Virus record (IMG/VR): IMGVR_UViG_3300031994_000011
Span: 107,959 to 171,958 of that record
Source of the DNA: a virus
Taxonomy: Duplodnaviria; Caudoviricetes
Direction: 5' to 3' (one strand)
Length of the DNA: 64,000 nucleotides
Shown: positions 1-43,466 of the stretch, one piece after another
Position numbering within the stretch: position 1 is the stretch's first letter
Layout: every line of letters starts with the position of its first letter
Made by a program: the position numbers and the translations under genes
Notes under the pieces: model-generated
Told to the model about the DNA's origin: nothing
What the model saw: only the letters and a program-made list of their open reading frames with translations
The model's database searches: none

Positions 1-3000
1 TAATATAATAATATTTTATATTTTAAAAATCCTTGATAGCCACTTTGTTGATTAAAATCTATCTATATTGTATATTCTGTATCTTGTATTAAATTTTTCT
101 CAATAGAAAGAGTTTCTGATAAGTTTCTAGTAGGATCTGCTTTATTTAATGTAACAATTCCTTCAAAATTTATATCAAATATTGTATTTAATTGTACCGT
201 AGGAATCTATGATTCTGTAGCAGTTTCTACTGCTCCATTTTTAGTTTTTAAAGTATTACATAATACATTTCCTTCAGAATCAACCTTAAAAACAGTATCG
301 CCAAATACATTAGTAAATTCTAGCTACCCTTTATTAGCTTTTACTTTAAATTCTCCACCTGCAAGAGTTATAGCTCCTTGAGATCCAATACTAATTGAAC
401 CGCCACCTAAGTACATTGAAGAATCATCAGCCGTTAAGTAAATAGAGTTCCCATTTAACGCTATTCCACTACTATCAAGTACTATTGCAGCATTATCATT
501 CATTGCCTTTAATCCAGTAATATCTGACTAATTCACCCAATCAGATGTACCATTTATTCTATATTGAACATTATTCCCATTTTCTTGCTTTTCTACATAA
601 GTCATTCCATTATCATCGATCCAATATATTTCAGTATTGTTTGCAATTGTAATACCAGAATTTGATCCAATGAGCATTGGATAATTACTGTCATTTCCCA
701 ACACAAGTCCATAAGTTTTTCCCTTCCATACTGTTAATCCAGTAAGTCCGTATGTTTTAATTGGAGCAAAATCTCTAACTATGTCTGCAGCATCTTCAGA
801 AGCAGAGGTCGCATTAGCATTAGCAACTGTTAAACCATAATTAGCAATAGGTTCTGTATACTAAGTTGTTTGCTGATTTGTTGAAGGATCTTTCCAAACT
901 TGTTTAAAACTAGTATAATATGTATAGTCACTAATATAAGTAGGAACTGAAGTTGACCACTAGCTCTAAGTGTTAGCAGTTGGTTTATTTGGCTTACTTG
1001 TAGCTAGCTTATATAGCTATGTTGAAGAAATTAAAGATATGCCTTGTGATCCTTGTGTAACAGCTCCTTGCTAACCATCATTAGGATAATATTCACAGCT
1101 ATATTCAGTTTTTGTACTATTATTTTTATAAGTTATAGTTTTTTCAATCCATAAATATTTTCCTTTCTAAGGATTTCGTGTAAGGCTCCATCCACTGCTT
1201 GGCGGATTGGTAGAATTAGTAGAAACAGCATACCTATATGTTGGATCACCAACGGGTGTAATCGCATTTATATCACTTAAATCATAATTGCCATTAGTAG
1301 TAGTTATTTGTGTGCCAGATAATTGGAAGCTATTAGCAACAATATCTCCAGCTATTGTTAATTTTCCAGGAGAATATTTTAAATTATTACCTAATCTAAA
1401 GGCATATTTCTAATTTGTATAAACAGGTGTCCAATGATTAGAAACAAAATCTAAATCGCCGCTATAATCATCATTACTTTTATACATCTTATGATCATAA
1501 AATACTATATCATCTGTATTGTAACTAGTGTTTGGTTGAAAAGAAGGAATGCCTGCTATCTATGTATCTAATATAAAATTATTAGTATTAATCCACATAT
1601 TTGAATTTGAACCAATTATTATCCCATCATTACTAATTTTAACAAAGCTACCATTACTTAATGAATCATTCATCGTTGTTGTACCAATCATTATACCAGC
1701 CTAATCCATCAAAATCAAATTTCTTTGTCCATTTACTTGTGTGGCTAAACCAATCGAATCTTTGGTAATGACAACGCCAGAAATAGAAGAACTATTTTTT
1801 AGCGTATTATAATTTATATTAGAAGTATAATTTTGAGTACTATTACTAATTGTTCCAATATTTTGACCTACTGCTAAAACAATTTTATCAGAAGTAATCT
1901 AAACCGCTCCATTGTTAGAGTTACTATTAGATATATTTGATACTCCTAATAAAATTTGATTTTTATCTATTGCAACAGTCGCGCCATCTAACGTTTCATA
2001 TTCACCAGTATTATCATCTCTACTCATTTTTTTTGAATTTCCAGAATAAAAAACAATTTTACCTGTAGAGCCCATCCAAATACCTTGAGTAGGATGAAGT
2101 ATTAAAGCAGAAGCTGTATTATCTCCATTACCAGTTACCAACTAAATCGGCTAATGTGGTAACTATTTTGCTTTTTCTAAAAATCCATTTAAAATTTCTG
2201 CATTCTAAATATTATTGCCATTTAAAGTTGTTAAACTACTCCAAGCTCTGATTAAAATATCTCCTGCTATGTTAAAAACTCGTTCTAAATTTTGACTTTT
2301 TTTAACATTATCTTCAAATTTAAATGTCATATAATCATCTAAAGTTACTGGAGATATATCTTCATCATTTAATTCAGCTTTACTATTTAAAACTTTAAAA
2401 GAATCTGCAAAAATAGTTCCAGTAATATATAAATCACCACTATTTGGATCGGCCCAAAATACTTCATCATTATTCCAGTTTCTTAATTTTAAACCATCCC
2501 AGCTTACCTAAACTCTAGTTACACTAGCTGGTAATACTTGATATGAATTATTTATATAAACATTTGCATCTTTTTCAGCAATTAAGAATAATCCATTTTC
2601 ATTAAATTTTACATACTATAATTCGGTATATCCATCAGAATTATTAAAAGAATTAAGATAATCATCAAAGTTATTATATTCATTTTCACTTTCATTTTCA
2701 TTTTCATTATTACTAACTATACTATTCCATTTATTCTAAAGATCTTTAATTCGCTACAAGGCAGAAGAATCATTAAAATCTTCTAAGAAAGATTTATATC
2801 CAAATAATCCCTATTGATTTAATTGAAATCTTAGTCTATCTCCAGCAAAAATTTTAACTAAATTGGTATCTAATTGTCCAGTAGTAATTAAATCAGCATT
2901 TATTCCATTTGGCGTGATCGCGGTATTCCAAATCCAATCTTCGTTTTCATTTTTCTGAGAAGCAGTAAAAATTCCATCACATCTAAAATTCACAATACCA

Positions 3001-6000
3001 CTTTCGCTAGTGCCAACAATGCCATCTTTCTAATTAATAGTTAATTTTCCATTATTAAAATTATAGACAATTCCACGCTATGCTAAGGCTTGCTATATTG
3101 ATTCAATTGATAAATTTCCAGTAGAATCAAATGCACCAGCGGCCAATCCTATTGTATACGCATTTTTTTTCATATCCTAAGAAGATGCTACTATCGTTGA
3201 AAATAAATTTTCAAAATCAGTCTTGTAATTTTTAATAACAATCTAATCCTCCCAGGGTTTATCAAGATGCATAGTAATTTCAGAAATATATCCTAAAACT
3301 TCTTCAAATTTTAACTAGTTATCATTTATATGAGCAATATATCCCATTTTATTGTATATAGTTCTTATAAAATCTGGATTAACCATATTAACATCAATTT
3401 CATAAGATACCTTAGGAAATGCGTTCTATTTTAAAACTTGTACAGCATCTAAATAAATTGAAGTATCTGCATTAGATAAACAATAATATAAATTTATTTT
3501 AGGAATTATCATGCTATTATTTTCTAAAGTTAATTTAGAAGAATTTTGTGACTCATCATTATATTTTCCAACTTCTAATAACTCTTCAAGTTTTAAACAT
3601 AAATAATATTTATCATTTCTAGTTAATAAACGATAATCCTCATATTTTTTTAATACTCTATCATTATATAATATAGATAATTGAGTATCAGTCTATTTTA
3701 ATTTCAAAGAATTTATCTAAATTCTTGGAAACACAGAAATATAATACTAATTAGATTGAGAATTATCAAAATTCTAGCCATAGTTATCATTTGATAAAGA
3801 TAACCAATCACTAGTAGATAGAGACTAAGTATATTCATAACTAATTTTATGTGTTACTGGATCAATACTTGCTGTTCTTTCCCAATTAGGACTGATCGAT
3901 ATTTTTTCTTTTATCTATGGCTTATCATTATTATAAGTAAATTTTCCCAAACAAGCTTGTGTATCGACTGAGCTATCAAAAAAAGTATATTTATCAATTA
4001 TTATATCAAATAATTGAATAATTTGTCCGCTCTATTCAGAACCATTATCCTACAAATTAGTTTCATTTTGCTGTTCTTGTGAAGATAAAGATTCTTCTGA
4101 ATTTTCAGAAGTTTTTCTTAAAGTTTTAGTAATATAACTCTCTGTAAGAGGCAACTTTCTAGTATCTTCTATAGTGGTGGTTCTCTATTGCGTAGTTACT
4201 TCACTGTAAAGATACTAATTATCATTATTCATTTTTATAGTTCTAGAATTTAATAAATATTTTTTATTATTATAATCTATTGTATAATTCTAAGTTATTA
4301 TATAATTATTATCTTCTATAAATTCCTCAGAAAAAGAATAAGATGCGTTATTATTCTCTACCTCAGTTCCGTTAAAATAAGCAATAACATTCTCTGAATT
4401 ATTATCTCCATATGTAATATTAAAAATAAACTATATTGGATTCTAATGAAATAAATTCTTTTCTTGAATTATAACCTATTTTAATAACTATTCTTCTTCC
4501 GTGTCAGTCTTCTACTACGTAATTTGATATTCACTACTTATAGTATTTTTTCCAGAAAGAGTAATAATCATATTAATATTATTAATTAACAAACTATAAT
4601 AATCTTCTTTTAATGTAATTTCAATTGAAATATCATTAATATTCTATATATTATATAAATTATTACAATCAATTCTATTCGTTCCTTGAGATAAGTATTG
4701 ATTAGAATTGGTATAAATAATTGTATTTTTATTTTTTATAACTATTCTAGTATAAGCCCAATAACCAGAAGCAACTATTATTTCAAAAGATATTTTATTA
4801 TTATTACTATTAATGGCTTCATTTCCGCCTTTAATTAAAGCAGTAAGAGTGCTTCTTCCCAATCTCCTAGAACTTTTACTTATTAAAAATACTTGTTGAA
4901 ATGTTGACTCTTGTTGTTCAGGGATGACCTGTTGCTACCCCTACTGTTTCTATTCAGTTATTATTTCATACTTTTTAATAACTGTTTTTTCATTAATTTT
5001 TTCATCTTCTGCATTAGTTGTAACTATTAATTGTTTTACCGTTTTTTCACTAAGCTAACTATTAATTTTTACAATAGTTTCTGAAGAAGGATATGTGGTT
5101 TCTTTTTCAAAAGAAGTTAATTGTGAATAAACAATATTATTATCTCCGCCAGTTTGCATATTTTTAATTTGCTGTTTTGTCATATCTTTTGCGCCCAATA
5201 CTATCAAAATTGGGAAGACATTTCCGTCCTTATCTTTTAAAAGTCCTAATTGACATTCAGAACCAATTGCAAAAGAGCGATAATTTTTCTATGTTTGATT
5301 ATTTTTTAAATCATAAAAAATTAAACTTATATTATCATTATTTTGTATGCACTCTAACTGTTCAGAAGTTAATTTAATGCATGGATAAAATTCTTTATCT
5401 CTATTTATTCCAGACTCGTAATAAGGAAGTTGTTCACCATCAAATGGAACAGCATCCCAAATTGGAATAGCATATTTATTTTCATCTAAAAAATTCTAAT
5501 CATAAGAATAACAATAATTTCCCTATGAATCCTATACGGGCTATTCTTCAGAATCAATTATTAACTATCCAGTAGAAAATCCATTCTAAAACGTTGCTTT
5601 TAATTTATCACCATAATCATTATACTAGTCTGGAAGCCAATATCCCTATCGTAAAGCGGGGCCCATCATCATCTAAAAATTTTGTATCTATTTTTGTTTT
5701 TCTAATAATAACTATTCATATCTCTACTTTTTATCTTTTAAAGAATCATCAATTTTTTCAATTTTTGCAGTAGCCTTTTCATACTAACTTTCATCAGATG
5801 CCATTTTTCTACTCCAAACACTTTTTACACGTTTAATATACTATAATGGCTAATAATCATAAGTTAGATAAACCGAACGAGAGAAAGTAGAAGACTATGA
5901 ATTAGAAGAATTATTTAAAACTATATTATTTACCTTAATTAAATTATTAAACTAATCGAACTAAAAAGTTCCAAAAATCTAATCTGCAACCCTATCTTTT

Positions 6001-7451
6001 CCAGTTGCAGTATAAGAATATTTTCTATATATATGAAAACTTTCTGGTATAATACCAGTTTGACTTATATTTATAAAATAATTATTATTTTCTCCAGTAT
6101 TTTGTAACAATATTCCATTTGTCGGCCGCTCTGCAGTAACATGCAAAATTCCAGTATCCTCAGTAATACTATTTAATAAAGCACTCGCCTAAGTATATCT
6201 CTATTCTGCTAATTTTCTTCCTCTGTCATAAGTTGCTAAGTCGGCCTATACATTTAAACGAATCTATTCTAATTTTAAAATTTCTTCGCTTAATGGACCT
6301 AACTATTCATTTATTGTAGCAATTTTTCGCTAAAACTCAAAAACTCCATTATATTGTTCATCCGTTATTGAACCAACAGTATGCATATAATCAAAATTTA
6401 ATAAATAGTCTTCACCACTTTTATTTGCGGCAGTATCTAAAATTGTAATAAAGCCATCTCTACTAGTATCACTATTTACTGGTTTTATATACATTTTTGT
6501 TATTAAATTTGTACTATCAGCTTCTCTACTAATAGAAGAAGTATTATATGGATATGTAAAATCTAATGCTCCATATGTCTAATTTAAAAAATTATTATAA
6601 TAAACTACTTTTTTACCTATTATATTATAATTATTATCATGTTCATATACATATTTACAATGAACACCAAAGGTCTAAGCAATAGTTTGTGTTAAATTAT
6701 AAACATTACTTTCAGTAACATCTAATAATCTCTATTTTTCTTTTGCGGCCTAAATTTTTTTAGGTAATCCAGTTGTTCTATCCCATGAAGAAACATAAGT
6801 ATCCTAATATACTTTATCACTACTTCTTCCTTTATAGCCATCCCAATTCATATTTACCTAATAAGTCCAATATTTTATACGATCAAAAATTTTATTATTC
6901 CAATATTGAATTGTCGCCCGTGGCTAAGAAATATTAAGCTACTATCTTTCTGTTTCTGTCGAATTAGACCAAATTCCATATTCATTCATAAATTCGTCTT
7001 GAGATAAATCAATTTTATAGCCAATTTTCCCTAACTAATGAAAAGCAAGCCCTTCACAAGAAACTTCACAAGTTAATACGCCATTCTAATGTGTCTATGT
7101 AACCTTAGTTATAATAAACTAAAAAACTTCTTCATCCTATGTTGCGCGCTACTATGATACTTGTCTAACTGCATCTTTTTTATTGATAATAACTTTTATT
7201 TTTCTTGTACTCGCTACAATAACACCATTTGTAGTATTGTACCAAATAGGATTCTAAATTCTTTTACCATCCTATAATATATACATCGGAATTTTAAAAG
7301 TAAATTCCTGAGTTCCGTCATCAACTATTTTTAACTCGGGTTCTTGAATCTGTCCTTTATTCTCTAAAGTGGCATACTTCAAGACGGATATAAATCCGTC
7401 TTGAAGCGTCCAAATAGAGACTTCATAATTACGAATATCACTTGAAACCAT
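1..7451 (-). CDS. Tail tip/Tal-like (baseplate hub/central fibre) protein, >2,480 aa, runs off the window edge; TAG read-through
   Basis: ATG at 7451 after an AGGAGGAG SD. ORF-track fragments 4644-4862, 2811-2993 and 1899-2141 share this frame and each ends in TAG. It follows Dit and contains a WNTAITPNGINADLITTGQLDT motif typical of siphophage tail-tip proteins. Confidence 0.75.
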
Positions 7452-7475
7452 TAATCAGTCTCCTCCTTTTTACCC

Positions 7476-9314: not shown

Positions 9315-9339
9315 TTTGCTATTTCCTCCTTTACCTCCA

Positions 9340-28074: not shown

Positions 28075-28106
28075 TTATTCTCACACTCCTTTTACACATA
28101 AAAAAA

Positions 28107-29016: not shown

Positions 29017-29037
29017 AATGATTCACCAACCTTAAAA

Positions 29038-29062
29038 AGGAGGGTGATTACTCACCCTCCTT
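29038..29062 (-). terminator. Intrinsic terminator after the tail tube gene
   Basis: aggagggtga-ttac-tcaccctcct perfect stem plus T-run on the minus strand. Confidence 0.75.
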
Positions 29063-29075
29063 ATATAACAAATTA

Positions 29076-30857
29076 TTAAGAACCAGCGGTTAAGTCGCCT
29101 TCGTCATCGCCAGCAGTAGCAGCACTAGAAGCAGCACCACCATAACGAATTAGTTTCATCATTTCATCGCCGTCATCACCAGAAGAACGTAAAACCTGAA
29201 GCTGCATTTCAAAAGTAGAAGGATCACCCTCAGCTTCTAGAGTGAAGGTAACTTCAGACTGAACCTTAGCTTTGTTGATTACGAACTGGAAGGCTTCATC
29301 TTTACCAGTCTTTTCAGAACGAATAAAGGTATCGCCAACAACACGATATGTTCCAGGGAAGGTGCTAGGAGAAATGGTTACTTCAACAGCGGCATCATCA
29401 GTAGTAATTAAGTCTTCCCAGAAAATACGAATATGATCGCCAGCAACAGGAGCAACCTCAGAAACACCGGCAGCTGTATTGCTGAAAGTAAGAGTATTTC
29501 CACTAGCAGACATTACAGCAGTAGGAACAGTCGCTGTACTTACTACTTGAGTCCTTGTACCAGCACTTGCACTAGTGGTACCTGCAGTATTACCAAGATT
29601 GATAAAACGAACAGGATGCCCAACCCAAGCTTTGGGTAGAAGGGTTTCTTTGGTAAGATGATCTTTAGGAGCAGGAATCTTACCATCAGAACCAACAACA
29701 ACTTCTTCAGTATATCTTACTAGAACAGCTTCGCCACTCTTAGAACGCTTAATAGCGCCACCAAGCATGAAACGTAGAGACTCTAGAGACATTAGAGCAT
29801 CTTCTAGAGTAATGTTAATTTCTTTACCGTAGTCCCAACTGATTAAACGAGGATTCATTTTATTCCATTTAGTTCGTTAAGCTAAATGCGTTCTCTTATG
29901 AACTGCTTTAATTTTCATTAAAGTTTAGACTATATCTTCATCCGTAATTATACGGAGCCTCCCTTTTCATGACACTTGTCATTACAATTAGTCGTTGAAC
30001 CTTCAAAATATTTCCATTTAAAGCCTCCAGTGGTACGCCGTTTACCTTGACATACTTCACTAATATGTCTATGATTACAGCCAGTTTTTTTCCATGCTTC
30101 ATAAGCAGATGAAAAAACTTCTAACTATTCTTCCTATAATGTCATTTGAACTATAGGACGAGCAATAAATTGCGTACTACTTTTTAATTTTTCAGGTGGT
30201 ATATATTTTATATTTTCCTAATGAGTAACCCATTTTAAATTATTTAACTAATTATTTTGTGGATTACCGTCAATATGATGAACTTCTAGCTATTCTTCAT
30301 TTTCTCTCGGATCAAAAGCATGTAAAATTAAACGATGAACGCCAGTATTTATTACTTTTCCATTATCTGTAATTTTTACTCTTCTATACCCATCTCTGTC
30401 AATATAAGTTTTCATCATATGTATTTTTCTAACCAACCCCGTATCAGAGACTTCATATTCAGAATCAGTATTTATAGCTTTCCATTGCATAATCCTTACT
30501 CCTTTTATAATATTTTGCTTGGCTGCTGATTGCCTATTCTATGTTAAATTATAACATAAATCTTATTCGTTGTCAAACATTCATAGTGCTTCCCCTATTG
30601 TAGTGAATAAGCTTTAAGGTGTTCCAGCAATTAAAGAGGTTTTTTTATGTTGGAGCCATCCATCCCGATTACAGACCCCAACCGCCCTGGGCTGCGGTAT
30701 TTTCAGCAGTAGTTTCAATAGTAGAAACTTTTAGAGTATCTAGGAATAGCACAATGTCTCCAGCATAAACGCCAGCTGCAGCGTCTGCTTCAAGAGCTTC
30801 AAAATATACATTGGCAACCTATTTAATACCATATTTATCAAAAATATTTACAGCCAT
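29076..30857 (-). CDS. Major tail (tube) protein, spliced join(30857..30675, 29855..29076), 320 aa, single TAG at codon 13
   Basis: Exon 1 MAVNIFDKYGIK*VANVYFEAL...AQGGWG joins exon 2 NPRLISWDYGKEI..., restoring GGWGNP. C-terminal FTLEAEGDPSTFEM tube-like motif. Confidence 0.75.
29948..30490 (-). CDS. Intron-encoded HNH homing endonuclease (NUMOD4-like N-terminus, HNH, NUMOD1/IENR1-like C-terminus), 180 aa with 5 in-frame TAG
   Basis: MQWKAI..YEVSDTGLVR, VHRLI...VHHIDGNPQNN*LNNLKWVTH*EN, ISEVCQGKRRTTGGFKWKY. SD AAGGAG; TAA at 29948. Confidence 0.85.
30548..30576 (-). promoter_or_regulatory. sigmaA consensus promoter inside the intron, upstream of the HNH ORF
   Basis: TTGACA-17 bp-TATAAT with extended TG. 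Confidence 0.7.
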
Positions 30858-30878
30858 AATAAAATACCTCCAAATAAA

Positions 30879-31658
30879 TCATGATTTATTAGAATCCACA
30901 ATTGATCGCATCCAATGCTTCAATTGATTCTTTTTCATTTTTGCCCCAGCAAGAGCAGCACGATTATTAATATCAAACTGGTCTCGCCAACCCATACGTC
31001 TGAGCTGATCATGAAAGGCATAGTAAGTTATATTCCATATATTATCCATGTTTAAGCCACAGTTATTTATAGTAATGCTTCCGATGAGGTCAGAAAACTT
31101 TAAGTCGCTCTTCTCCCTCGCGGCTTGTTTAGCCTTCGCCTTACGTACCTTCTACCTATTTTGTTTCATTCTTTCTTTAAGCCGAACTACTTCAGGAGGG
31201 TCATCTTTATTGATGATTATCTACTCCTCATCAACGTCTAGAAAATAGGCACGGCTAATAAGCCGTCGAAGGTCGTAAAATTTTTCCTCTGTTAATATGT
31301 GTTTTTCTTCTATGGGTCCAACTATAATTTGTGCGGGATCTAAAGAAAAATTTACATCCTAATGTATAAAAAATTTAAAAGCCTATTTTAAAGTTTCATT
31401 AGACATTTTATCCATTGCCGTTAACATAAGTAAATACTGAAAATCAGTAACCTAACTTAATATTTTAGCCATCTATGGCTATTTATTCCAATCTGGGATT
31501 GGCTTTGTAGCTGTAATTGCGCCAAGTAATAATTGAAATTTACTATAACCTAAATCCACTATCTAACCCAATGTAGCGGAATAAACAGCACAAATATCGT
31601 CTAATAAAACAGGCGAACCTTTTTGAAACTTTAAAATCATATCATCAGTTAAATTCAT
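30879..31658 (-). CDS. Conserved morphogenesis-region protein, 259 aa; TAG read-through
   Basis: ATG 31658 to TGA 30879 in frame; lies between the neck genes and the tail tube. Confidence 0.6.
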
Positions 31659-32160
31659 TGATTTTATACCTCATAGTATAGCCGCCAATCCAAGGAGAAA
31701 GAGCTAAATTATCTGCTCTATAAAATTGTAAATTACCTATACCGGATAATTTAGCTTGATTAAACATTATATCAATCTATTGCATTATTAAATAAGGTCG
31801 TAATGACCTAGCATTTAATAGCCACTCATCATAAGGACAAGCAATATCAAATCTTACTGTAGAAACCTTAAACTATGGATTGATTTGATTAACGACAAAA
31901 TCATCAAAAATAGCCGTAACATACGACATTTTTTCTGTACTATCATCAAATATTTTAGGAACGATTAAAATTTGTTTATTTATAAGTTCGGCACCATCAA
32001 CATTAGGTTGCTACTTACCATTACACATTTCTTTTAATGGATCTCTTGTTTGATACTTTAATAGCCTACATAATGTTTGATTTGACATTAATTTATCAGC
32101 TATTTTAAAAGTATTATCACCCATTACAGCAAATCTTCTTTGCCCACTTACATCTCCCAT
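31645..32160 (-). CDS. Putative tail terminator/neck protein, 171 aa; TAG read-through
   Basis: In frame ATG to TGA; NP*FK and LRPYLIMQ*ID motifs; synteny. Confidence 0.55.
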
Positions 32161-32176
32161 ATTTTAATCACCCCTT

Positions 32177-33412
32177 TTACCACAATGGAATAATAGAAAT
32201 AACTTTCGTATAAGTATTTCCATTATATTCCGCAATTAATGTTATATCTCCAAGCTAATTTTCATCATTAGCTTGAATTTTACAGGCATGTTTTATCTAT
32301 TCAGTTGATACATTATCTTTAGTCTAAATAGAAACAAATTTTGCTAATGCAGTATTTTCTAATGAGAAAGTAACTATTGAATTTTCATCTATAGCTGGCT
32401 TTCCAACCAATTTATAAATAGCGGTTCTATTCAATCTAATTGAATTATTTCCCTAAATATGTCCAAAAAATTCTTCGGTTGGCGCGCCAACTTTTACTGT
32501 AATAGTATTTTTAATAGATGGAAAATCTTTTAATTGAACTGTAATAGTAGTAGTCCCCTATCTCAATGCCTTTAATTTATCATTCTCGATAGTAATGATA
32601 CTTTTATCATCAGGAATAAACTAATATTCTCCCGAATAAACTTGTCCATTCTTCATTAGTGTAAAAGAAGGAATGACAAACTAGCCAATCTAAAAAACTT
32701 GAGGTTCCTATGAAGTAATTATCTCATAAGAAGCAATATTATTGGTATCTGCTAAATTATTCTATACATCATCATAGATACTATTAATCTTACCCTCTGT
32801 TAGAGAAAGATAAATAATTCCAGGCACACTAGTATGATCATACTACACAACAGTCCAAGATTCTTCTTCGACAATAAAATTTGTAGCTCTATTTATAGGA
32901 TAACGCGGCATTAAAATCTAAGCATATTTGTTTGGTTGTGGTGTAATCAGCGAGTTCCACGTTCTGAAATTTCCTTTAATTTTAGAATCTAAAGAGCTAA
33001 CAAAATAGCTCCAGGATTGTTGAACGTGACCATCACCATCAACCCATTTCATTAGATAATTACATCTTACTATCCAAAAAGTTCTATAAGTCCCATTAAC
33101 TTTTTTTTCTTCTTGGACAAGTATCCATTTCTAAATCTATCCATTATCTAATTTCCAATTCATAATGTCTCCAACATTAATAGGAATCTAATTACTAACA
33201 TTTAGAAACATTATTTTCTAATGCTATTTATCCTTATTAGTTAATATTATTCCATCAAAATATATTCCACGCTACACAGACAAATGACGAACGGTGTGAG
33301 GAGATTCGCTCATCCATTTTATAAATGAACGAATTCCGCCATTACGTATTCTTTCAGCTGTAGTAGTTCCTAAATGATTTATCCTAGAATAATAAGCATC
33401 AAGATAGTTCAT
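32177..33412 (-). CDS. Putative head-closure/neck protein with C-terminal Ig-like region, 411 aa; TAG read-through
   Basis: In frame ATG to TAA; CNYLMKW and DHTSVPGIIYLSLTE motifs; synteny. Confidence 0.55.
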
Positions 33413-33674
33413 CTGGAACAGATAGACTTCCTATCAGATTCATACACTAAAAAATAGTCTTTCTAAAATATTCATAAGATAAATGTTTTAACGAACTTAA
33501 TTTACCTATTAGCGGCCAATAGTTAATACAATTGGCCCCTAATCCCTACAACTAAATGATGATAGAATCTAAAAATTTCTACCATTCTCCGCCCTTCTAC
33601 TTCTCACAAAGAAGGCCGTAAAGTCTTCCTTTCAATTTATTTTTATAGCCATCAAAAGTAACATCAGACGACAT
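33399..33674 (-). CDS. Small conserved neck-region protein, 91 aa with 5 TAG
   Basis: MSSDVTFDGYKNKLKGRLYGLLCEK*KGGEW*KFLDSIII*L*G...YFRKTIF*CMNL; overlaps both neighbours. Confidence 0.6.
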
Positions 33675-34149
33675 TCTTTTTCCCTGCCAATTTTTTAAAT
33701 AATTCAGCGGGTGTCTTATTTCTGGAACGATCATAAATACCCTACGCTTTATGAACCTCTAATGCCACTGCCGCCTCTAATTTATTTAATTTATCTAAAT
33801 GATTTGCTTGTGAGAAGTCTTTGTCTGCGTATAATTGTCTAATATTCTCCCAGCTTGCTATACAACGTTTAATCCACTCATGCTTCATATATAATGATAA
33901 TAATTGAATTTCATCGTTTGTTAAATCGCCAGCAAACTGAAAAGTAGAAACTTCGCTTCCATAAGGGTCTACATTTATAGTCTATTCAACTTCAAGACTA
34001 ACTCTTGGATATTTAAATCTAAAAATCGCGGCCTTTAGAAGCTATTGCCAATCCCGCTCAACAATGGCCATATCTTCTTCAAGAGTCCACTAATCTGCGG
34101 TAATGCGCGCTAAAAAAGCGTCATACACTTTAAAAAAAGATGTTGCCAT
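33664..34149 (-). CDS. Putative head-tail adaptor, 161 aa; TAG read-through
   Basis: MATSFFKVYDAFLARITAD*W...YADKDFSQANHL; located just after the capsid module. Confidence 0.6.
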
Positions 34150-34589
34150 TATTCTTCTTCTTGATGTCTCATATTAATGAGATCAATTACATCACGGCCG
34201 CAATACTTCTTAATTAACTGAACGATCGCGGAATGCGTGATACCTTTTTCCACAGCTAAATCAACAACTGTTTCTTTTTCTGCGGGAGCGGCAGTAGGAA
34301 TAAATTTAGCAAAAGCTGTAATATCTAATTCGTCTAGCATTTTACTAATATCAGCTTTAGAATATGTTGGTAGTTCTACTTCAACCTTTTCATCCTCTTC
34401 AAGACCTTCAACTTTTAGATAATGTCCACTAACAAGAGAATTAAAGCCGGTATCAAAAACTAGATCATTATACATATCTTTTTCAATCACAATAGACCTT
34501 CCGGGTACAAGTTCACGATTAAGTCTAATTTCAGGTACGAATAAAGATACAGTCGCATTGCTAATATTTGTAATAGTTACCTTTTCCAT
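34149..34589 (-). CDS. Conserved head-module protein, 146 aa (no TAG)
   Basis: Intact ORF with GGAGG SD directly after the major capsid gene. Confidence 0.75.
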   Translation of the reverse strand: MEKVTITNISNATVSLFVPEIRLNRELVPGRSIVIEKDMYNDLVFDTGFNSLVSGHYLKVEGLEEDEKVEVELPTYSKADISKMLDELDITAFAKFIPTAAPAEKETVVDLAVEKGITHSAIVQLIKKYCGRDVIDLINMRHQEEE

Positions 34590-34619
34590 AAAAAGTTCCT
34601 CCTTTTATCTCAAAAAAAT

Positions 34620-34649
34620 AAGTGGGGTGGGGCAAGCCCACCCCACTTA
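34620..34649 (-). terminator. Intrinsic terminator after the major capsid gene
   Basis: agtggggtggg...cccaccccact stem plus T-run on the minus strand. Confidence 0.8.
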
Positions 34650-34665
34650 CATAATTATTATATTA

Positions 34666-35730
34666 TTAAGCAGTTAGATTTGCGTTATAAGTAGCCCAAT
34701 TTGTATTAGTACTAAGAGCACTATTATAATAAATTCCCCAGAAATTGAGAGGAGATACAACGGCTAGACCAACCTTGGTATAAGCCTGAATGGTAATAGA
34801 ATTATCGCCCTCGTGGTCATTCCACTCACGGAAATAAGAATTACCTTCAAAGATTAGCTTAATCATCTTTTCCTTGCCAGTAGGAATTACATAAGCAAAG
34901 GCAGGATTCATAACAAGATTTTCATTAGTTTCATCGGTGAAAGACTGAGGCATTACAACAACGGGAACGCCCTGGAATTTTCCGATATAACCGCGCTCAC
35001 GAATATCAATCATATCCTGATCAGAAATCTTAGTGGTATTGTTGTAAACAATAGCATTAACCATTTCAGCAGCAAATTCAGGAGAGCAATAGATAACTGG
35101 GGAACCATAAGCAGCAACAACATTACAAAGTTTCTTCATAGAAGTAGGATTGAAGTTATTAGCAACAACCTTATTCTTAGGAAGCATCTTTTTCCAAGAA
35201 GATAGAAGCATTTCTTGAACTAATTCAAAAATTCTATCAACCATGCCTTCATTGATTACTTCGTAAATATCAGTAATGCTTTCAACGCCATCAAGATAAC
35301 GCTCAAAATCAACATATCCAGCGCCACCAAGAGCGAAAGGATACACATCAAAACGATCCCTATCAAGACGGAAGGTCTCGTAATTACCAGATTCAGTAGC
35401 ACGGGTTACAAACTGCTTACCACGTTGCTTACCACGGGTAACATAAAATTCAGGACGAGAGCCCTGAGGAACACGAACGATTTCAGTGAACATATCTAGA
35501 GCAGAAGTTAAACTCTGAGGAAGAACTTCGTCAAGATTTTGAGAAAGTAGTTCAAATAGATCGATCTTGTTTCTTTCATATTTATAGCGATTAATACGTC
35601 CATTTTCATCGCATAGAAGCTTCTTTAGCTCATCACGTAGAGCAGCTTCATAATCGTAATCGGCGGCTGCGAACTCAGCAGGAACTTTACGACCGAAAAC
35701 GCCATTCATTAAAACTTGTAGACTATTCAT
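34666..35730 (-). CDS. Major capsid protein, 354 aa (no TAG)
   Basis: Intact ORF, start refined to ATG 35730 after GGAGGTG. Size, position after protease/decoration genes, GYIGKFQGVPVVVMPQ motif and following terminator support the call. Confidence 0.8.
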   Translation of the reverse strand: MNSLQVLMNGVFGRKVPAEFAAADYDYEAALRDELKKLLCDENGRINRYKYERNKIDLFELLSQNLDEVLPQSLTSALDMFTEIVRVPQGSRPEFYVTRGKQRGKQFVTRATESGNYETFRLDRDRFDVYPFALGGAGYVDFERYLDGVESITDIYEVINEGMVDRIFELVQEMLLSSWKKMLPKNKVVANNFNPTSMKKLCNVVAAYGSPVIYCSPEFAAEMVNAIVYNNTTKISDQDMIDIRERGYIGKFQGVPVVVMPQSFTDETNENLVMNPAFAYVIPTGKEKMIKLIFEGNSYFREWNDHEGDNSITIQAYTKVGLAVVSPLNFWGIYYNSALSTNTNWATYNANLTA

Positions 35731-35744
35731 AGTTCGCACCTCCA

Positions 35745-36326
35745 TTATACTCTAATCATCTGATACTTAACGCCCTTTTCGCCGTTAGGTACAGTATAAT
35801 ATTTTACTACTTTGCCGTAAGCTACATTAGCAGCAGGAGTAGTTTTAGTTAGCTTTGGAACTGGAGAACCAGCTACTGGAACAACATATACAGCAGTGGT
35901 CGCGCAAGCGGCTAGAGTAGCCTCTAGAGCCTCAGCAGTAGTGAAACCAGTTTCAGAGTCATCATACTGTAAGCAATTAGCAGTTACGGTATCACCAATA
36001 CTAAAAATGCCTACGCGAGGATAATCGCCCGCAACCTTGCGGCCGAAAGTCTTTAGACCATAATGGAAAACATCATATTCTTTCTCAGCGGTATATACAA
36101 TACCAATTGGCTTGTCAGTGGCAGCCCCAGGAGCATCAATAACGCCCTTAGCTTTATCAGCAACAACCCACATACCGTTTTCGCAAACGCCATAATTACC
36201 GTTTCCGCCCTCGACAAATTTCTCGCCAAGGGGAGTCTGAGAAACTACCATGCCAGTCTTTGGGAAAGCTACCTGATTTAGCTCTAGAGTGGCATACTGT
36301 TCAACAGGAAATCTTTTCATAGCCAT
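35745..36326 (-). CDS. Putative capsid decoration/minor head protein, 193 aa (no TAG)
   Basis: Intact ORF immediately upstream of the capsid gene; ELNQVAF, ENGM and YPRVG motifs. Confidence 0.65.
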   Translation of the reverse strand: MAMKRFPVEQYATLELNQVAFPKTGMVVSQTPLGEKFVEGGNGNYGVCENGMWVVADKAKGVIDAPGAATDKPIGIVYTAEKEYDVFHYGLKTFGRKVAGDYPRVGIFSIGDTVTANCLQYDDSETGFTTAEALEATLAACATTAVYVVPVAGSPVPKLTKTTPAANVAYGKVVKYYTVPNGEKGVKYQMIRV

Positions 36327-36340
36327 AGTTTATTCACTCC

Positions 36341-37639
36341 TTAGTTTTTACGATATTTTTTCATGAGTAAAGAAAATTGAGATTCTTCGGGTGTAAGAAC
36401 GGGAACTTGCTTTACTTCAGATTTTTTATTATTAATTTGCCGATGGGCAAAAATAATAGCTAATTTATTTTCTAATTCTTCGTAAGAAAATTCATCAACC
36501 TTTTCTTTAACTGGACTAATTTCTTCTTCAGAGAGAATATTATTATAATCTTCAATTAAACTATTCTTACGATCTTTCTAAGCAACAGCCGCTGCAGCCT
36601 CATAAGACTGTAAGCTGTTCTATAGTTCAGTAATTTTGTTGCGAAGAGATTCTAGTTCTTTATTCGTATCTTGCTAAAATTTTGAAGCATTTTGGATTTG
36701 CTCTTGCGCTTCATTAAATTTAACTTGTAATTCATTATAGGAAGTTTGTAACTCATTATATTGCTGTTGTAGTTTTTCAAATTCAGAAGGAGCAGCTTCT
36801 TCAACAGGAGCGGGCTCTTCAACAGCTTCTTCTACTTGCGCGCCGTCGGCAGAAAATTCAGTTACTTCTTCTTCTTTCTTTTCTTCATTAACTTCAAATT
36901 CTGTTACGGTTTCAGTAGTTTCATTTACTTCGGGAGTTACTTCAGTTTCAACAACTTCCTGATTTTCATTCTCATTCATTGGTTGTTCTCCTCCCTCTTT
37001 GTTTTGTTCAGCTTCTTCTACTTTTGCTTTTAAATCAAACAAGAGTGAAGAAAACTTCTAATATTGATTATCATATTTTTCATCATTTTTAGAGAAAAAA
37101 GATGAAACAGAAAAACATGGTTCATGCTCTCCAATAATACAAAAACCTAACATTTTTGCGGTCGTATAAACAAAGTATTCTTCGTTCTAAATTAAAGTCC
37201 AATCACCCTGAATAGAAGAAGGATCTAATTCCATACTTTGATTTTGTCCCATAATTTTTTGTGCCTATTCATAGTAATCTGTAAAAAGAATTACTGAAAA
37301 CACAGCATATTCACGGGTCACGCCGTCAGTGTCCTAAAAAGGTTCCCACCCAATAAAATTCTCTACATAGCCATACCCTTTGGCTAAGTTAGGACCGCTA
37401 TGACTAGCCCAACTTTTTGTAGAGGGATCGAAGAATCCTACTACTGGAGTGTTGCCTTTTGTAGCGCTTTCAATGAGTTGCTAAGCAACACTCTCAGTAA
37501 TATAAGATCCATTACGATTCGCATATTTGGTAAAAACCCTAACTTTTAAGCGCCCAATGTTAGGTGTTTCTTCTGAAATACCTTGAAATGGAGAAGACAC
37601 AATAACGCTATCAAAATATATTGGAATTTGTTTTTCCAT
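36341..37639 (-). CDS. Prohead protease/scaffold fusion, 432 aa; TAG read-through
   Basis: NRNGSYIT, GQNQSMELDP and GFCIIGEHEPCF motifs, followed by an acidic coiled coil (ORF 36674-37042 is in frame). Confidence 0.75.
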
Positions 37640-37653
37640 TATAATCTCCTCCT

Positions 37654-39201
37654 TTATCCAGCTGATTCTATATTAGTTTGAGTTTTTTCACTTTTCTACT
37701 AATCAGAAAGCTATGGTCGTCCACCTTTATCATCAGATGATTGTTTTGCGACTACTGTTGTTTTTTGTCCCTGGTTACTCTTTTCTTCATCAGCAATAGT
37801 ATTACCAGAAGTAGTATAAGAAGATTGCAAAGGTACCATTTTTAAAGACATTTCAAGGAACTCATTTTCAAAATTCATCAAACTTAATTGATCTCTCTGT
37901 TTCATTCCTAAAGCAACACCAGCGAACATTTTAGAATAACCATATTGCGCACCGCGGAAATAAGAAGATTGTAACTAATCTCTATTAAATACTGTTATAG
38001 GAAGTATCTAAAAATCAAATGATAAATTAGTTCTTGCGAACTTATCATTTATATGAAATTTTATCCAACTTTCATAAATATTTAAATAAGCAGACATTAA
38101 AGTCTAATCTTTCTTTATGGCATAAGCAAGAGAAGAGCTTCCATCTGGATTAAATAAAATTCTACCTCTTCCTAAAGCATCCCATGTATTCGTTTTATAC
38201 TTTTCTATTCTATTTGTCGATTGCGTTGCCGCGCTACTATCCTGTAAACTCTATAAATTTGTTTCTCCAAAAGTAGTTAAAACATCTACGGTATCCTAAT
38301 CTGCTAGCATCTAAGCAACAGAAGCATGTATTTCAGTTACTTCTTCAAGAGGAAAAACAAGCTAACCATCACCATCAACTGGCATTCTTTGAATTAGTAA
38401 TTTCCTTAATTCATTTTCATCTCTTGTTTCTTCTCTTTTAACTGCGTCATCTAATTTTTTTAAAGCAGGTAGACTAGCAATAAGTAAAGGAGTCTGATCA
38501 TTGGTAAAGCTAAAGCTGATTCCGCCACTAGCCGCGGGCAACATAACCCATGGGTCTATTAGTTTATTTCCTTTTTTCTTCCAAGCTTTCCATGCTTTTT
38601 GAATTTCTTCTGGAAAAGAAGCAATTGCTTCTGCTCTTGCTTTTTCATCAGTAATAGTTTCAAAGTATAATATATTAAATTCAAGAATATTTAAGTTATT
38701 AAAATCCTTAAATCTTGTCCGACAATATTGAAGAGGTAAATCTTGAATTGTAACTTTATCGCCATCTGTTCTTAAAATTCCATTATAAATACCATTTTTC
38801 AACCACTATTTAGTAATTCTTGTAAAAGTATTCGGAACATCAAGTTTATCAACAAAATTACAAGCGTTATAGAAAGCTTTGGTTATTTGTGTCTTAGATC
38901 CTTTCCCTTCCTAATATAGTGGAATAACCACAGTATCATAGGTTGGTAAACATGCTAAAAAATCTATATTATTTCTATATAAGCTATTTGTTCTATAATA
39001 ATATCTAGATAATTCTCTTAAAGAATCTAAATCGCCAGAGCGAATAATTTCTTGAATTTCCTATAATGTAAAGTCAGAGTGAACAGGATCTGCTCTATGA
39101 TATCCCCATCTACTATATGCTCCAGGACTAATCGGCGCACGGCTAACCCTCAGACGAGAGCGAAAATTAGCAAAATCGTGTGAGGGTTTCTCTTTACCCA
39201 T
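37654..39201 (-). CDS. Portal protein, 515 aa; TAG read-through
   Basis: ATG 39201 to TAA 37654 in frame, containing ORFs 38362-38802 and 37711-37929. IQDLPLQYCR, PLQSSYT and GGRP motifs; follows terL. Confidence 0.8.
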
Positions 39202-39206
39202 AACAA

Positions 39207-41279
39207 TCACCCCCTTCTTTCTTTTTTATTTTTCTTTGGTGTATAAAACGTATATTCACTATAGTTTTTCTTCTTCGACATCTTTAGTGCCTTATCTTCA
39301 TAGTACTTTACCCTATAAAGAGCATACTATAACGCTGAGAAGCGGTCCTTTTCTACGGAACGTGAAATACGTTCTATTTTAAATTGGTTCTGCGCACCAG
39401 TTGGTTTAAGTTTCAAATTATTTAATTCATCCATTAGTCGTGATGTCATTATATAAGGCATTAAAAAAATATGTCTATCTACACTAGTCATATTTTTACC
39501 TTTTTTTGTCTTTAATAATTTATCTTTTATTACATTTTCATTCGCTAAGAAAGCGACCGAACCGTTATTTATTTGGGAGAAGAAGTTCGAATGTATTAAG
39601 TCATCATTACTTGAACCAGCTTTTATGTCATAGATTATTCCATTTAAAGAAGGCCAAGGCTCATTGCTCTAGACTTTTTTCTAAGGTGGTAAATGATGAT
39701 CATTATTAAAGGCATAATATGATGGAAATTGCTATCCAGTTTTAAAATCTATAGATGGCAGAACCATAGCATCTAATAGACCAATACCGGGACCGTTACC
39801 GTCAATCACGATTTCGCGCGGATTATATAGTTGAATAAGTTTTTTTAGCCTTGGAGCTTGTTCCGTAATATAGTTCGCGCCATGAATAACTTCAGTATAA
39901 ATAACTTTCTTCTTAAAGCTGGTTTTTTCGGGCATTACTTTAATAACCATAACAGCGGTATTCGCAGCGTATCTCGCAACGTCTCATTTATATTCCATTA
40001 AATTCGCTACATTTAATGCGTTCTTTTATGAACTGCTATATGTTTCCATATAGATTAGACTATATCTTCATCTTATTAAAAGATGCTCCCTTTTTCAGAC
40101 ACCAAACGCTTGTATCTTACATAATAGTCGTTGAACCTTTTCGTAAAGAAAAATCTATAAAATTCTTTACAAACTTGGCTGCGGATTACCTTTTAATACG
40201 GCTTCCCGCAATTTAAGGAGTTATTGCCCTGTCATCACTGGCAGGCGGGGCAAGCTGTTCACCCCTATCAGATAAAATGTGTTTTTATTAACAGGATTCT
40301 CTTGTGCTTTTTTTTCACATTTTAATAAAGTTCTTCTTTTTGCTAATTTTTTAGAGTCAAGCCAAGCCTATTTATTATTACCAGTCCATAGACTTAAACT
40401 TTCACGAGAAAAGCTTTCATCAGACACGGTAGCTGAATAACGCTGGTCCATCATGGTTGCTCTATCCAAAAGACCATAATGAAGAGGAACTTCATAACTT
40501 AAACCCCATACAAAATACTATCTTGGGCGCAAAACAGCATTTACAGCACACTAAATTAACTTACTATACATGAATACTGTCTTTTCGCGCGCGGTAGTAA
40601 TAAAAATTTGAGGAGAAGTAGGTTCTTCTGGATTAAGTGTTCCATCAACCTATCTACGAGCAACGTTCATTTGAGGAAGCAAAACTTCCGTGTAATCTGT
40701 TTCTTCTATTGTCGCGGCCTACTCTAAAATACCGCATGTCGCGCGCAAACCACGGCTCGTGTCTTTTGAAACAACCGTTATATTACTACCATTTTTAAAA
40801 TGTAATTCATAATAGTTACCACTCTTTTTCTAACCAGTTTTACCATCATCAAGGCGAGTAGTAAGCTATTTTCTTAATAAAGGCCAATGACGAAAAATTT
40901 CTTCAAATTTAGCTTCAGCAATTTTTATTACTGTACCTTTTACGTCAGAGGCGATGAATATGTTAGAGTTAGGAAGTAGGACGGCGCGCACAACAGCACT
41001 AAGATAAGCGGTAAAAGACTTGGATGTCGCGCGTGTAGCAGTCCAAAAATGGTATCTGTAACGCATTGATGCGCGCAAAGCAATTCGTTGAAAAAGAAAC
41101 AAATGAAAATGCTTAGCATCACTAGAATCTTGAATTTCATCAAGAAAGCAATCAGGATAAAGAAGCCAATAGTTTAAATATTTTGTAAATAACTATTTAT
41201 TAGCATCTAAAAAAGATTTCGTTAATACTACGCCTTTCTAAATTGGTATTCCATTTCTGTAAGCTACTTCTTCAGCCAT
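39207..41279 (-). CDS. terL: Terminase large subunit, spliced join(41279..40261, 39984..39207), ~598 aa; TAG read-through
   Basis: Walker A-like ATRATSKSF, Walker B RGLRATCGILE*AA, coupling motif IFITTA, nuclease motifs YLIGVDVAR, IVIDGNGPG and KDRFSAL*Y. Confidence 0.9.
39985..40260 (-). mobile_element. ORF-less group I intron (276 nt) in terL
   Basis: Splits Val codon GT|A immediately before the catalytic Asp (G-V-D-V-A-R). P AATTGCGGGAA, Q AATCCGCAGCCAAG, R GGTTCAACGACTA, S AAGATATAGTCT; terminal G. Confidence 0.9.
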
Positions 41280-42208
41280 TATACCAATTCACCTGCCAAC
41301 TCATCCTATCCCTAATAATCAACATCGGCAGTACTGTCAAACTAGACAGCTTCGTTCTCAATTTCTTCAAGGCGCTAAGTAATGTTGAAGCGTTCTTTTC
41401 TATCCTCAACTTGCTATGCGAAATTACCTTCATTTACTACTAATCTCTTTAAATAATTCTGTATATTCTGCATACAAAAATCAATATCATCTTTAGGCTA
41501 AGAAACCCATTTAGGATGCCAACCAAGTTTTCCATAATAAACCATTAGTTCACCTACTGACTCAAAGTCAGCGGCATTTTTCGCGTTAGAGGCTTCAAAC
41601 TTGGCTATTTTAATAATGTTATCGCGGGCATCCATATCCTTTTTTATATCATGCCCCTCCCGCAAGCCTCTCTTTATGCGTAACTAAATTTCGCATAGGT
41701 CGCGCGCGTACTATTGTAAAATAGGAGTAGAAACGTTTTGCGTAGCAATAATCTTATTATAGTAATCCTAAAGAAAAAGCAATTCTTCCTTTGTATATGT
41801 GGAGGACCAAGTTTTTTTTAGTCGCGCAATTTTAGCACTTGAAAGAGCTTCAATTTCTTCATCTATTGTACCTTCTTCGCGCGCTAAGCGCCAACGCTAA
41901 TTTTCATCGCTCCATTGTAGGGCTTGATAATGCTAATCTAGTAACGTATTAAAGTAGGCCGTTAAGGTATGATCTTTATGTATTTTATAAAGTGATGTCC
42001 ATTTATTTAAATCAAATGGCACATCAAGATATCTGCATAACCTATCTACCTATCCTAAGTTTTCTTGGTCTATCATTACTTCTAAGCAGGAAGTACAAAT
42101 TAACGATCTATGGGAAGGAAAAAATTTGGAAGGCGTATATTGAAATTCACTTTCTGGCTTCTATGACTTGCATCGCATGCAACGTCGGGTCTTTGGAACG
42201 TTTGTCAT
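41279..42208 (-). CDS. Zn-finger protein upstream of terL (possible terminase small subunit), 309 aa; TAG read-through
   Basis: MTNVPKTRRCMRC...ICTSC; its stop overlaps the terL start (TAATG). Confidence 0.6.
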
Positions 42209-43466
42209 ACTTGTTCTGCACCCCCCGTTCTATTCTTCTCTTCTTCTCGCATTCCTTACACACAGAAGAGAAGTGGTCTTTTCTACTATTATTTACACCA
42301 AAGAAGACAGTATCGCGTGGAAACACGCGGCCGCATCGAATACAAGCTTTCTGCTCTTCTATTGGTGTTTCTATAAGTAAGCGATTCTTCTTTGCCGTAA
42401 TAGCAATTGCGTTTGGTATTTCGCGCGCAAATATGTTACTTAAGTAGTTTTCGTTGTACTTTAGGCCAAAGCGCGCGAGCAGTTCCTCTATTATTTCTGG
42501 ATATACCATTTTTTTAATTTTCATATCAAGCAAGGCATTACGTATAGGCGAGAAATTACACATCTAGCGGTAGCGCTAAAAGTCAAAAATTAGGGTGCGG
42601 CCGTAGGTCTAAAATTTTTCATGCATGTATTCATAAAGTGCCTGATAATTATTTATCAAGGCTCTTATGTGGGCTGGGTTCTCCCAGTCAAATGTATGTT
42701 GGCGCACTACCCATTTTATCATCCCGTCCTACCTTACCTCATAGTCCTTTAAATTTTTTGAAATTGAGCTAAGTAGCGCGTCATCTACTTTTTGCTGCCA
42801 CTACTATTGTGTTACCCAATAAAAGGAATCAGCGGTCCAATCTACGAATTGGGCGCGAGGCTTGTCAGCCGCCATAAAGTGTATGGTGGGCTTGTAGGCA
42901 TCTTTAAGATAGTATTGGTGCTTACGCAGGTCCGCTAACTGATGTTTTAATTGATAAAGGCGATAGGAGTCAGGTAGAAAGTAGGTGTTCTCGTCAGGCG
43001 GCAGCTTCCCTTCATTTATGGCTACTAACTTTTCTATGCGCTCAATAGATTGCCAAAGGTCGCGCATACCGGGGATGTCGCTGTCGCCCGGATCTAGTAA
43101 CTCGCCTGTCTTCTTATCAAATTTGGGATGATTTATTACGGGCTTGGGATTGGTGTAGGGCCGCCGTATGTTCGCCGGATGTAGGTCTTGCTGGTTTGTT
43201 GAAGGATTCTAAAGGAGCTAATCTAGGGAAAGGTTTTTGTCGTCTTTTTTCTTGAAGGTTGCGTAACGTTTATGGCCATCTGTTACCTATCCTCGTTGGA
43301 CAGCATTATAACCTTCTTCATCTTTTCCGTATAGTATGTAGGACCCCATTTGGTCTAACTAGTCTGGGGTGGGCGGTTTTTCTAATTGACTTAAAATTTG
43401 TTTTACAGCAGCCACGCGGTCGGTGTCTCGCTGGATGCTGTAATCCAGGGTGTATGCTTTTTTCAA
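42147..43466 (-). CDS. First gene of the late operon, 439 aa, with C-terminal CxxC...CxxC; TAG read-through
   Basis: TTG start after GGAGG. ORFs 42804-43067 and 42147-42563 are in frame. CIRCGR...VCKEC. Confidence 0.65.

Follow-up and report, generated by a model that had tools for sequence, protein, structure and literature searches.

The late-gene block

The DNA examined here is a stretch of 64,000 bp (the window), which forms the final 64 kb of a single 171,958-bp contig in IMG/VR (record IMGVR_UViG_3300031994_000011, positions 107,959 to 171,958) and in which the amber codon TAG occurs repeatedly within the late genes. According to IMG/VR, the contig has direct terminal repeats and represents a complete virus; the window is the late-gene arm of this tailed phage of the sheep rumen, hereafter called the query. 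Sheep and cattle gut or rumen metagenomes contained its 31-mers, and 90–100% of the 31-mers were also present in two RNA sequencing (RNA-seq) libraries from a different study. A first-pass annotation, made from the letters of the sequence, had claimed that TAG encodes glutamate in this phage and not glutamine, the usual phage assignment. That claim is supported by the residues found at TAG columns in alignments, by the presence of TAG at invariant Glu sites, and by a suppressor tRNA of the tRNA-Glu type; from these comparisons we consider it very probable that TAG is read as glutamate.

Under code 11, stop-to-stop frames of at least 100 aa spanned 24.5% of the minus strand in window positions 1–43481, and the longest was 361 aa. 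When TAG was treated as a sense codon, the coverage rose to 98%, the longest frame was 6244 aa, and the late block resolved into a tight array of open reading frames (ORFs). Control readings of the same strand and region with TGA or TAA as sense gave only 25% and 32% coverage, respectively. The proposal that the structural genes become full length only by readthrough of TAG is thus borne out. Twenty late ORFs contained 430 in-frame TAGs in 14,244 codons. Genes modelled over the whole genome with TAG as sense ended at TAA in 159 cases and at TGA in 58 (n = 217), as expected if these two are the only true stops. The density of TAG was very uneven: 0.7–4 per 1000 codons at genome positions 70–100 kb vs. 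21–31 per 1000 in the late block, where three abundant virion genes (29076–29858, 34666–35745, and 35745–36326) had no TAG at all. The query therefore has the properties of stop-codon-recoded phages: readthrough of TAG, and of no other stop codon, opens the frames; TAG ends no gene; the replication and early genes avoid TAG; and the phage encodes a suppressor tRNA matching TAG. Each of the seven positions singled out by the first-pass annotation (40719, 11599, 26524, 37265, 30819, 39327, and 33447) was found to be a minus-strand TAG in the peptide context that had been quoted for it.

Residues expected at TAG positions

The capsid-type protein of the query was used to collect relatives, which yielded 69 related IMG/VR contigs at 65–90% identity. 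ORFs were called in these loci with TAG translated as X, paired with the late genes of the query, and compared codon by codon. The alignment set comprised 18 gene families with 37–75 homologues each and median identities of 35–76%; family q_29951_30490 had only 6. With all 69 relatives pooled, residues aligned with a query TAG were Glu in 58.9%, Asp in 10.5%, Gln in 4.5%, and Lys in 4.1%. The corresponding values were Glu 61.5%, Asp 9.8%, and Gln 3.6% for query GAA codons, and Glu 68.3% and Asp 8.4% for GAG. Positions with CAA in the query were occupied in the relatives by Gln (48.1%), TAG (9.5%), or Glu (9.1%).

A more restricted test used the 23 relatives without in-frame TAG, which have the standard code, and took one consensus residue per site. 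For 126 TAG sites the consensus was Glu at 83 (65.9%), Asp at 15 (11.9%), Gln at 8 (6.3%), and Lys at 4. Sites with a Glu codon in the query (n = 356) gave 70.8% Glu, 7.9% Asp, and 4.2% Gln, and sites with a Gln codon (n = 211) gave 64.9% Gln and 10.0% Glu. This tabulation, which had been proposed with the original claim, showed that the residue profile of TAG columns matches that of Glu codons in this phage; the dominance of Gln that characterizes TAG columns in code 15 was not found at the 126 sites. The log-likelihood of the TAG sites under the empirical codon profiles was −183 for Glu, −327 for Asp, and −344 for Gln, placing Glu ahead of Asp by 144 and of Gln by 160 log-likelihood units. 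Amino acid composition pointed the same way. Standard-code orthologues contained 8.57% Glu and 3.86% Gln, and the query contained 6.82% Glu, 3.17% Gln, and 2.29% TAG, values that fit the addition of TAG to Glu and not to Gln.

Many of the TAGs were found in columns where Glu is invariant. At terminase residues 138, 187, 210, and 243, portal residue 369, and residue 73 of terminase exon 2, where the query has TAG, every aligned standard-code relative (21 or 22 per column) had Glu, as did all of the other aligned relatives (42–43), with the exception of one Lys at exon 2 residue 73. At the TAG at 37265–37267, 21 of 22 standard-code relatives had Glu. Outside the window, a TAG in the Walker B motif of a PhoH-like gene aligned with the E of DEAQN in PDB 3b85. 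Searches with other profiles and structures were less productive: a Pfam search with ten late proteins gave no useful matches; a PDB search with a TAG-rich helicase gave no match; and PDB alignments of ClpP and the lysin contained no informative TAG columns.

The terminase gene and its Walker B motif

The TAG at 40719–40721 is codon 187 of the terminase, in the context G-I-L-E-TAG-A-A, and had been pointed out in the first-pass annotation for its place in the Walker B motif. The argument held: this column was Glu in 22 of 22 standard-code relatives and in 43 of 43 others, that is, in 65 of 65 members of the family. It was also Glu, within the pattern h-h-(D/E)-E, in all six terminases examined from cultured standard-code phages of Bacillota, which are 30–38% identical to that of the query; residue 138 was likewise Glu in all six. 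Homologues annotated as large terminase occur in Geobacillus virus E3, Enterococcus phage H1, and several Bacillus phages, and these annotated homologues lie between the small terminase and portal genes. Judged by this gene order and these homologues, the protein with the Walker B TAG is the terminase large subunit. A profile of the terminase family gave no match in PDB, and an AlphaFold model of the terminase of a relative, built from a 7-row alignment, had a predicted local distance difference test score (pLDDT) of 35 and was too poor for use.

The first-pass annotation had treated the terminase as two genes. This part did not stand, because the two ORFs are one gene split by a group I intron. 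Positions 39985–40260 matched Rfam family RF00028 with 95.4 bits (gathering score 50), and an RNA-seq contig identical to the window joined position 39984 directly to 40261, producing a joined ORF of 598 aa. In 58 of 67 relatives both halves of the terminase were found in a single ORF. The form without the intron was also present in contigs from runs X5 and X8, two of three other runs, which are listed as 'DNA?'.

A suppressor tRNA of the tRNA-Glu type

A search for a tRNA with anticodon CUA had been suggested as a check on the reassignment, and ARAGORN, which identified ten tRNAs in the genome, located one at genome positions 50570–50643, 57 kb upstream of the window. The gene is preceded, at a distance of 28 nt, by a sigma-70-type promoter that agrees with the consensus at 11 of 12 positions. 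The tRNA has G1·U72, A73, U11-A24, U13·G22, A46, and a 4-nt TAAC variable loop without nucleotide 47. It thus possesses tRNA-Glu's augmented D helix (U11-A24 and U13·G22 with A46, and no nucleotide 47); the features of a code-15 suppressor, a weak or U1-A72 first pair together with G73, were not found. The D-helix features and the missing nucleotide 47 are major determinants in the tRNA body for Escherichia coli GluRS (PMC9976931), and U1-A72 is a determinant on tRNA-Gln for the amidotransferase GatCAB and for GluRS2 (PMC9976931, PMC2811023). U1-A72 and G73 were both present in the phage's own tRNA-Gln(UUG).

Comparisons with other tRNAs supported the isotype. A BLAST search of 301 Clostridia genomes with the tRNA-CUA gave partial matches only, which were informative on isotype: the three best-scoring distinct places (in genomes G294, G135, and G106) lie within genes identified by ARAGORN as tRNA-Glu. 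The same search revealed no donor or host of the tRNA. In pairwise scores against 169 collected tRNAs, the best matches other than suppressors were tRNA-Glu. Homologous tRNA-CUA genes were found in the genome of one relative, L011, and on a 37-kb contig from the same metagenome. All three phage copies kept the acceptor stem, the G·U first pair, A73, and the D arm, and they had compensatory changes in the anticodon and T stems.

The suppressors of three relatives with TAG on Gln columns were different. They are 87–91 nt long with a long variable region, their 1-72 pairs are weak (U-A, A·C, and U·G), and two of the three have G73. In both code types, therefore, two independent lines of sequence evidence, selection at TAG columns and tRNA identity features, appear to agree. 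These three tRNAs (L109:8570–8659, L111:2806–2896, and L112:5769–5855; genomes G002, G004, and G005) carry an extra arm or insert of 15–23 nt after the anticodon stem. Their pairwise scores were closer to tRNA-Trp or type II tRNAs than to tRNA-Gln, although the TAGs of these phages lie on Gln columns.

Further tRNA-like sequences were seen outside the window. Directly after the query suppressor (genome C1:50647–50901; L003:12647–12901), the intron mode of ARAGORN reported a tRNA-Gln(UUG) whose anticodon loop contains an insert of 69 nt and, more weakly, a tRNA-Lys(CUU) with an insert of 27 nt. At C1:57724–57796, ARAGORN reported a tRNA-like gene whose 'anticodon' consists of two bases (tt) and whose acceptor stem has mismatches at its base; this may be a degenerate or otherwise unusual tRNA. 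A tRNA-CUA of similar kind (LR756500.1:110372–111013; L183), with G1·U72, A73, the same D-loop motif, and the TAAC variable loop, is present in a published uncultured phage of 462 kb; the candidacy of that phage as a further recoded one was rejected, since 100 kb of its sequence contained almost no in-frame TAG.

A search for GluRS and release factor genes had also been suggested as a check; no GluRS or GlnRS catalytic domain and no class-1 release factor domain was found in the query or in four relatives.

Amber codes within the phage family

The same TAG-column procedure was applied to every relative. The standard code was found in 23 relatives, and in about 43 the TAGs fell on Gln columns (Gln 37–71%, Glu 0–19%). 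Because Gln was called where Gln was expected, the method can distinguish Gln from Glu. In L011 (IMG/VR 3300021399_000108, 163.5 kb) the TAG columns were 63% Glu, 10% Asp, and 10% Gln, and by this measure L011 shares the TAG = Glu assignment with the query. A 6-kb fragment, L035, was less clear, with Glu at 7 of 17 TAG sites, and probably has the same assignment. Since most close relatives use TAG = Gln, the Glu code, as deduced from these columns, sits beside code 15 within one phage family.

In an IQ-TREE tree built from concatenated capsid, terminase, and portal proteins, the query grouped with eight TAG = Gln phages with full support, and L011 and L035 were placed elsewhere. The stop, Gln, and Glu states require at least 10 changes on this tree. 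The query and L011 have 16 TAG positions in common in structural genes and 14 more in the tRNA-bearing part of the genome. The family is thus a mosaic one with a labile code state. A direct switch of code that would have left relic TAG sites was considered and set aside. Within window positions 28138–43481, TAGs of Gln-coded sisters coincided with query TAG positions in 3.3% of cells vs. 0.6% for GAA/GAG; at the level of sites, the enrichment was weak (p = 0.03 to 0.1).

Taken jointly, the tree and the tRNAs suggest a more tentative picture, which we regard as possible but would not favor as it stands: the meaning of the amber codon may be swappable in this family of rumen siphophages, with the Glu code carried by a tRNA-Glu(CUA) lineage (G1·U72, A73) common to different structural backbones. 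If so, incompatible amber codes in co-circulating sisters would act against recombination and against exploitation in co-infected hosts.

Decoding of TAG and alternative explanations

We propose that the phage's own amber suppressor, a tRNA-Glu body with a CUA anticodon, would supply Glu at TAG. Because no phage synthetase domain was found, the tRNA would have to be charged by a host enzyme, presumably the glutamyl-tRNA synthetase acting through the body determinants; lacking U1-A72 and G73, the tRNA would escape GlnRS and conversion by GatCAB. The TAG-poor replication genes could then be translated by a naive host, and the late, lysis, and some accessory genes (20–31 TAG per 1000 codons) would be produced at full length only after the suppressor had been made. 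The uneven density of TAG fits the published idea that recoding delays translation of late genes until the suppressor is present (Borges et al., 10.1101/2021.08.26.457843).

The host is probably a rumen member of the Bacillota, because the distant matches of the capsid-type protein are to phAss-1 and to large siphophages of Enterococcus, Clostridioides, Brevibacillus, Bacillus, and Staphylococcus. A weak hint is provided by a TAG = Gln relative, L116 (JAZQTG010000088.1), a 47-kb contig that was binned into an Acutalibacteraceae metagenome-assembled genome (MAG). This MAG contains a GlnRS-type C-terminal domain, and no match to GatB was found in it.

Several points weigh against a Glu assignment. 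CUA anticodons tend to attract GlnRS, and some insertion of Gln is possible. About 6% of the TAG sites lie on columns with a Gln consensus, and the signal at TAG columns is that of the residue expected by selection, not of the residue inserted. The identity of the terminase is derived from gene order and annotated homologues; Pfam and PDB sequence searches gave it no name. For E. coli GluRS the anticodon (U34, U35, C36, and A37) is a strong determinant (PMC9976931); CUA keeps only U35 and A37 of these, and charging by GluRS is therefore not self-evident. Finally, with a GlnRS-type domain and no GatB match in the candidate host MAG, the argument from GatCAB may not apply. The charging route may differ between hosts. 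We also considered that loss of U1-A72 in a host without GlnRS could have turned a Gln suppressor into a Glu suppressor. The sole candidate host MAG has the GlnRS-type domain, and GatB was not detected there; this scenario is kept only as one possible route.

These points bear most directly on ambiguous decoding, in which the tRNA-CUA would carry mostly Glu and partly Gln as a result of mischarging by GlnRS or partial transamidation. GluRS normally reads the anticodon, a GlnRS-type enzyme is present in the candidate host MAG, and the share of Gln is slightly higher for TAG sites (6.3%) than for sites with a Glu codon (4.2%). That excess is within noise, however, and insertion of much Gln at the catalytic and invariant Glu columns occupied by TAG would be costly. 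In addition, the tRNA has a tRNA-Glu body, and tRNA-Glu determinants are reported to be antideterminants for GlnRS (PMC9976931). We judge partial insertion of Gln unlikely.

A second alternative, which we hold to be improbable, is that TAG = Glu is the host's own code, which the phage shares just as code-4 and code-25 phages share that of their hosts. An origin in the rumen would be compatible with this. Exclusion of TAG from the replication genes and possession of a suppressor behind a strong promoter are, however, what is seen in phages that grow on standard-code hosts, and among the sister phages the code is either TAG = Gln or standard. Moreover, ARAGORN detected no bacterial tRNA-CUA in the 30 best-match loci from the 301 Clostridia genomes.

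Ordinary code 15, with the Glu-like pattern caused only by exchangeability of Gln and Glu, has precedent on its side: Gln has been the assignment in all published phages with TAG as a sense codon, among them the phAss-1 group, which is distantly related; the same assignment was obtained here for about 43 of the 69 relatives; and Gln is the consensus at 8 of the 126 TAG sites. We nevertheless find it very improbable. TAG columns are 66% Glu and 6% Gln, the reverse of true Gln codons (65% Gln, 10% Glu), with a log-likelihood gap of 160; TAG occupies invariant Glu columns, including that of the terminase Walker B motif; U1-A72 and G73 are missing from the tRNA-CUA; and the composition matches Glu plus TAG, not Gln plus TAG.

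Nothing was found in favor of the last alternative, that GAG codons were turned into TAG by errors of sequencing or assembly. It has practically no chance of being correct, because RNA-seq contigs from another study (run X1) had zero differences over eight pieces, 0.7–3.2 kb each, of TAG-bearing genes, the separate 163.5-kb assembly of L011 has the 16 and 14 TAG positions described above in common with the query, GAG codons are still present in the same genes, and TAG is missing from the early genes and the three abundant virion genes. Systematic miscalling of GAG as TAG is thus excluded.

Relation to known recoded systems

In phages with a code unlike that of the host, Borges et al. (10.1101/2021.08.26.457843) report having observed only TAG to Gln and TGA to Trp, a limit that was explained by the ease with which GlnRS and TrpRS can be hijacked. 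The phAss-1 group has been assigned TAG to Gln in the literature; in a study of Lak phages, occasional Glu was seen at TAG columns, yet Gln was deduced. Annotation tools offer only table 15 for recoding of TAG. A phage code with TAG as Glu was not found in the full-text literature searched.

The query resembles the code-15 phages (crAss-like, Lak, Agate, and phAss-1; 10.1101/2021.08.26.457843, PMC9523058, PMC10607447) in the concentration of TAG in late, structural, and lysis genes, in its TAG-poor replication genes, and in having a phage tRNA-CUA without its own synthetase. One of them, phAss-1, is a distant relative with a capsid protein 34% identical to that of the query. The difference lies in the amino acid, Glu in place of Gln, and in the suppressor, which here is of the tRNA-Glu type (G1·U72, A73, and a 4-nt variable loop) and not of the tRNA-Gln type. 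A further comparison is with the TAG = Gln sisters (e.g., IMG/VR 3300021400_000113 and 3300032038_000007), whose structural proteins are 60–70% identical, whose gene order is the same, and in which TAG is sense in the same genes; they differ in that their TAGs lie on Gln columns and their tRNA-CUA is 87–91 nt long.

Some eukaryotic nuclear codes, such as that of peritrich ciliates (NCBI table 30), read UAR as Glu, so that UAA is also Glu, and apply to a whole cellular genome. UAG = Glu is common to those codes and to the query. Here, most genes (159 of 217) still stop at TAA, only a virus with its own tRNA is affected by the change, and reading TAA as sense leaves the frames closed.

Compared with bacterial tRNA-Glu, the tRNA-CUA has all of the expected features (U11-A24, U13-G22:A46, and no nucleotide 47; PMC9976931), and, like tRNA-Glu of Clostridia, A73. 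Over the variable loop and T arm, only 2 of 25 bases differ from a clostridial tRNA-Glu (92% identity). The differences from bacterial tRNA-Glu are the anticodon, CUA in place of UUC or CUC, and the first pair, G1·U72 in all three phage copies in place of G1-C72.

Stop-codon recoding in phages has been regarded as restricted to TAG = Gln and TGA = Trp, and a TAG = Glu phage would show that a third synthetase system can be recruited. The query would also provide a natural tRNA-Glu(CUA) that works in Bacillota-type hosts, if it is charged as proposed. In practice, gene callers using table 15 would place Gln at about 3% of the residues of the late proteins, including catalytic glutamates. Because a single family contains the standard, Gln, and Glu codes, close relatives offer a direct test of how code changes evolve.

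Other features of the window

The genes of the late block are listed in Table 1. At its eight TAG sites, the phrog_4051 protein had a standard-code consensus of Glu at six, Asp at one, and a mixture at one.

Table 1. Positions of genes and other features in the late-gene block (window coordinates)
Feature	Position	Strand	Remarks
Giant tail-fibre-like late ORF	1–7451	−	Runs past the window start; 2545 aa in the genome; 96 in-frame TAG
Late ORF, 672 aa	7476–9494	−	27 TAG
Tape-measure-like ORF, 6244 aa	9340–28074	−	195 TAG; family name is the label of the first-pass annotation
Late ORF, 292 aa	28138–29016	−	11 TAG; conserved in 45 relatives
Virion structural protein (phrog_2729)	29076–29858	−	No TAG
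Conserved late protein (phrog_4051)	30879–31658	−	8 TAG
Late ORF, 411 aa	32177–33412	−	18 TAG
Capsid-type protein	34666–35745	−	No TAG; query for finding relatives; homologue in Bacillus phage Kirov annotated as major capsid protein
Abundant virion gene	35745–36326	−	No TAG
Late ORF, 432 aa	36341–37639	−	8 TAG
Portal protein (phrog_2739)	37654–39210	−	13 TAG, several in columns of invariant Glu
Terminase large subunit, exon 2 (nuclease half)	39207–39984	−	4 TAG
Group I intron inside the terminase gene, 276 nt	39985–40260	−	Absent from an RNA-seq contig
Terminase large subunit, exon 1 (ATPase half)	40261–41279	−	9 TAG
TAG in the Walker B motif of the terminase, in place of the second acidic residue	40719–40721	−	Column invariant Glu in all relatives examined
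Conserved ORF, 309 aa (phrog_3314)	41279–42208	−	13 TAG
Sigma-factor-like ORF, 444 aa (phrog_5767)	42147–43481	−	11 TAG; last TAG-rich gene of the block

The 6244-codon ORF in the tape-measure position would be extraordinarily long for a tape measure protein; the related loci cover only its first part. Beyond the late block, window positions 43500–64000 have a G+C content of 0.40–0.44, compared with about 0.30, and contain mostly short ORFs on both strands with few TAGs.

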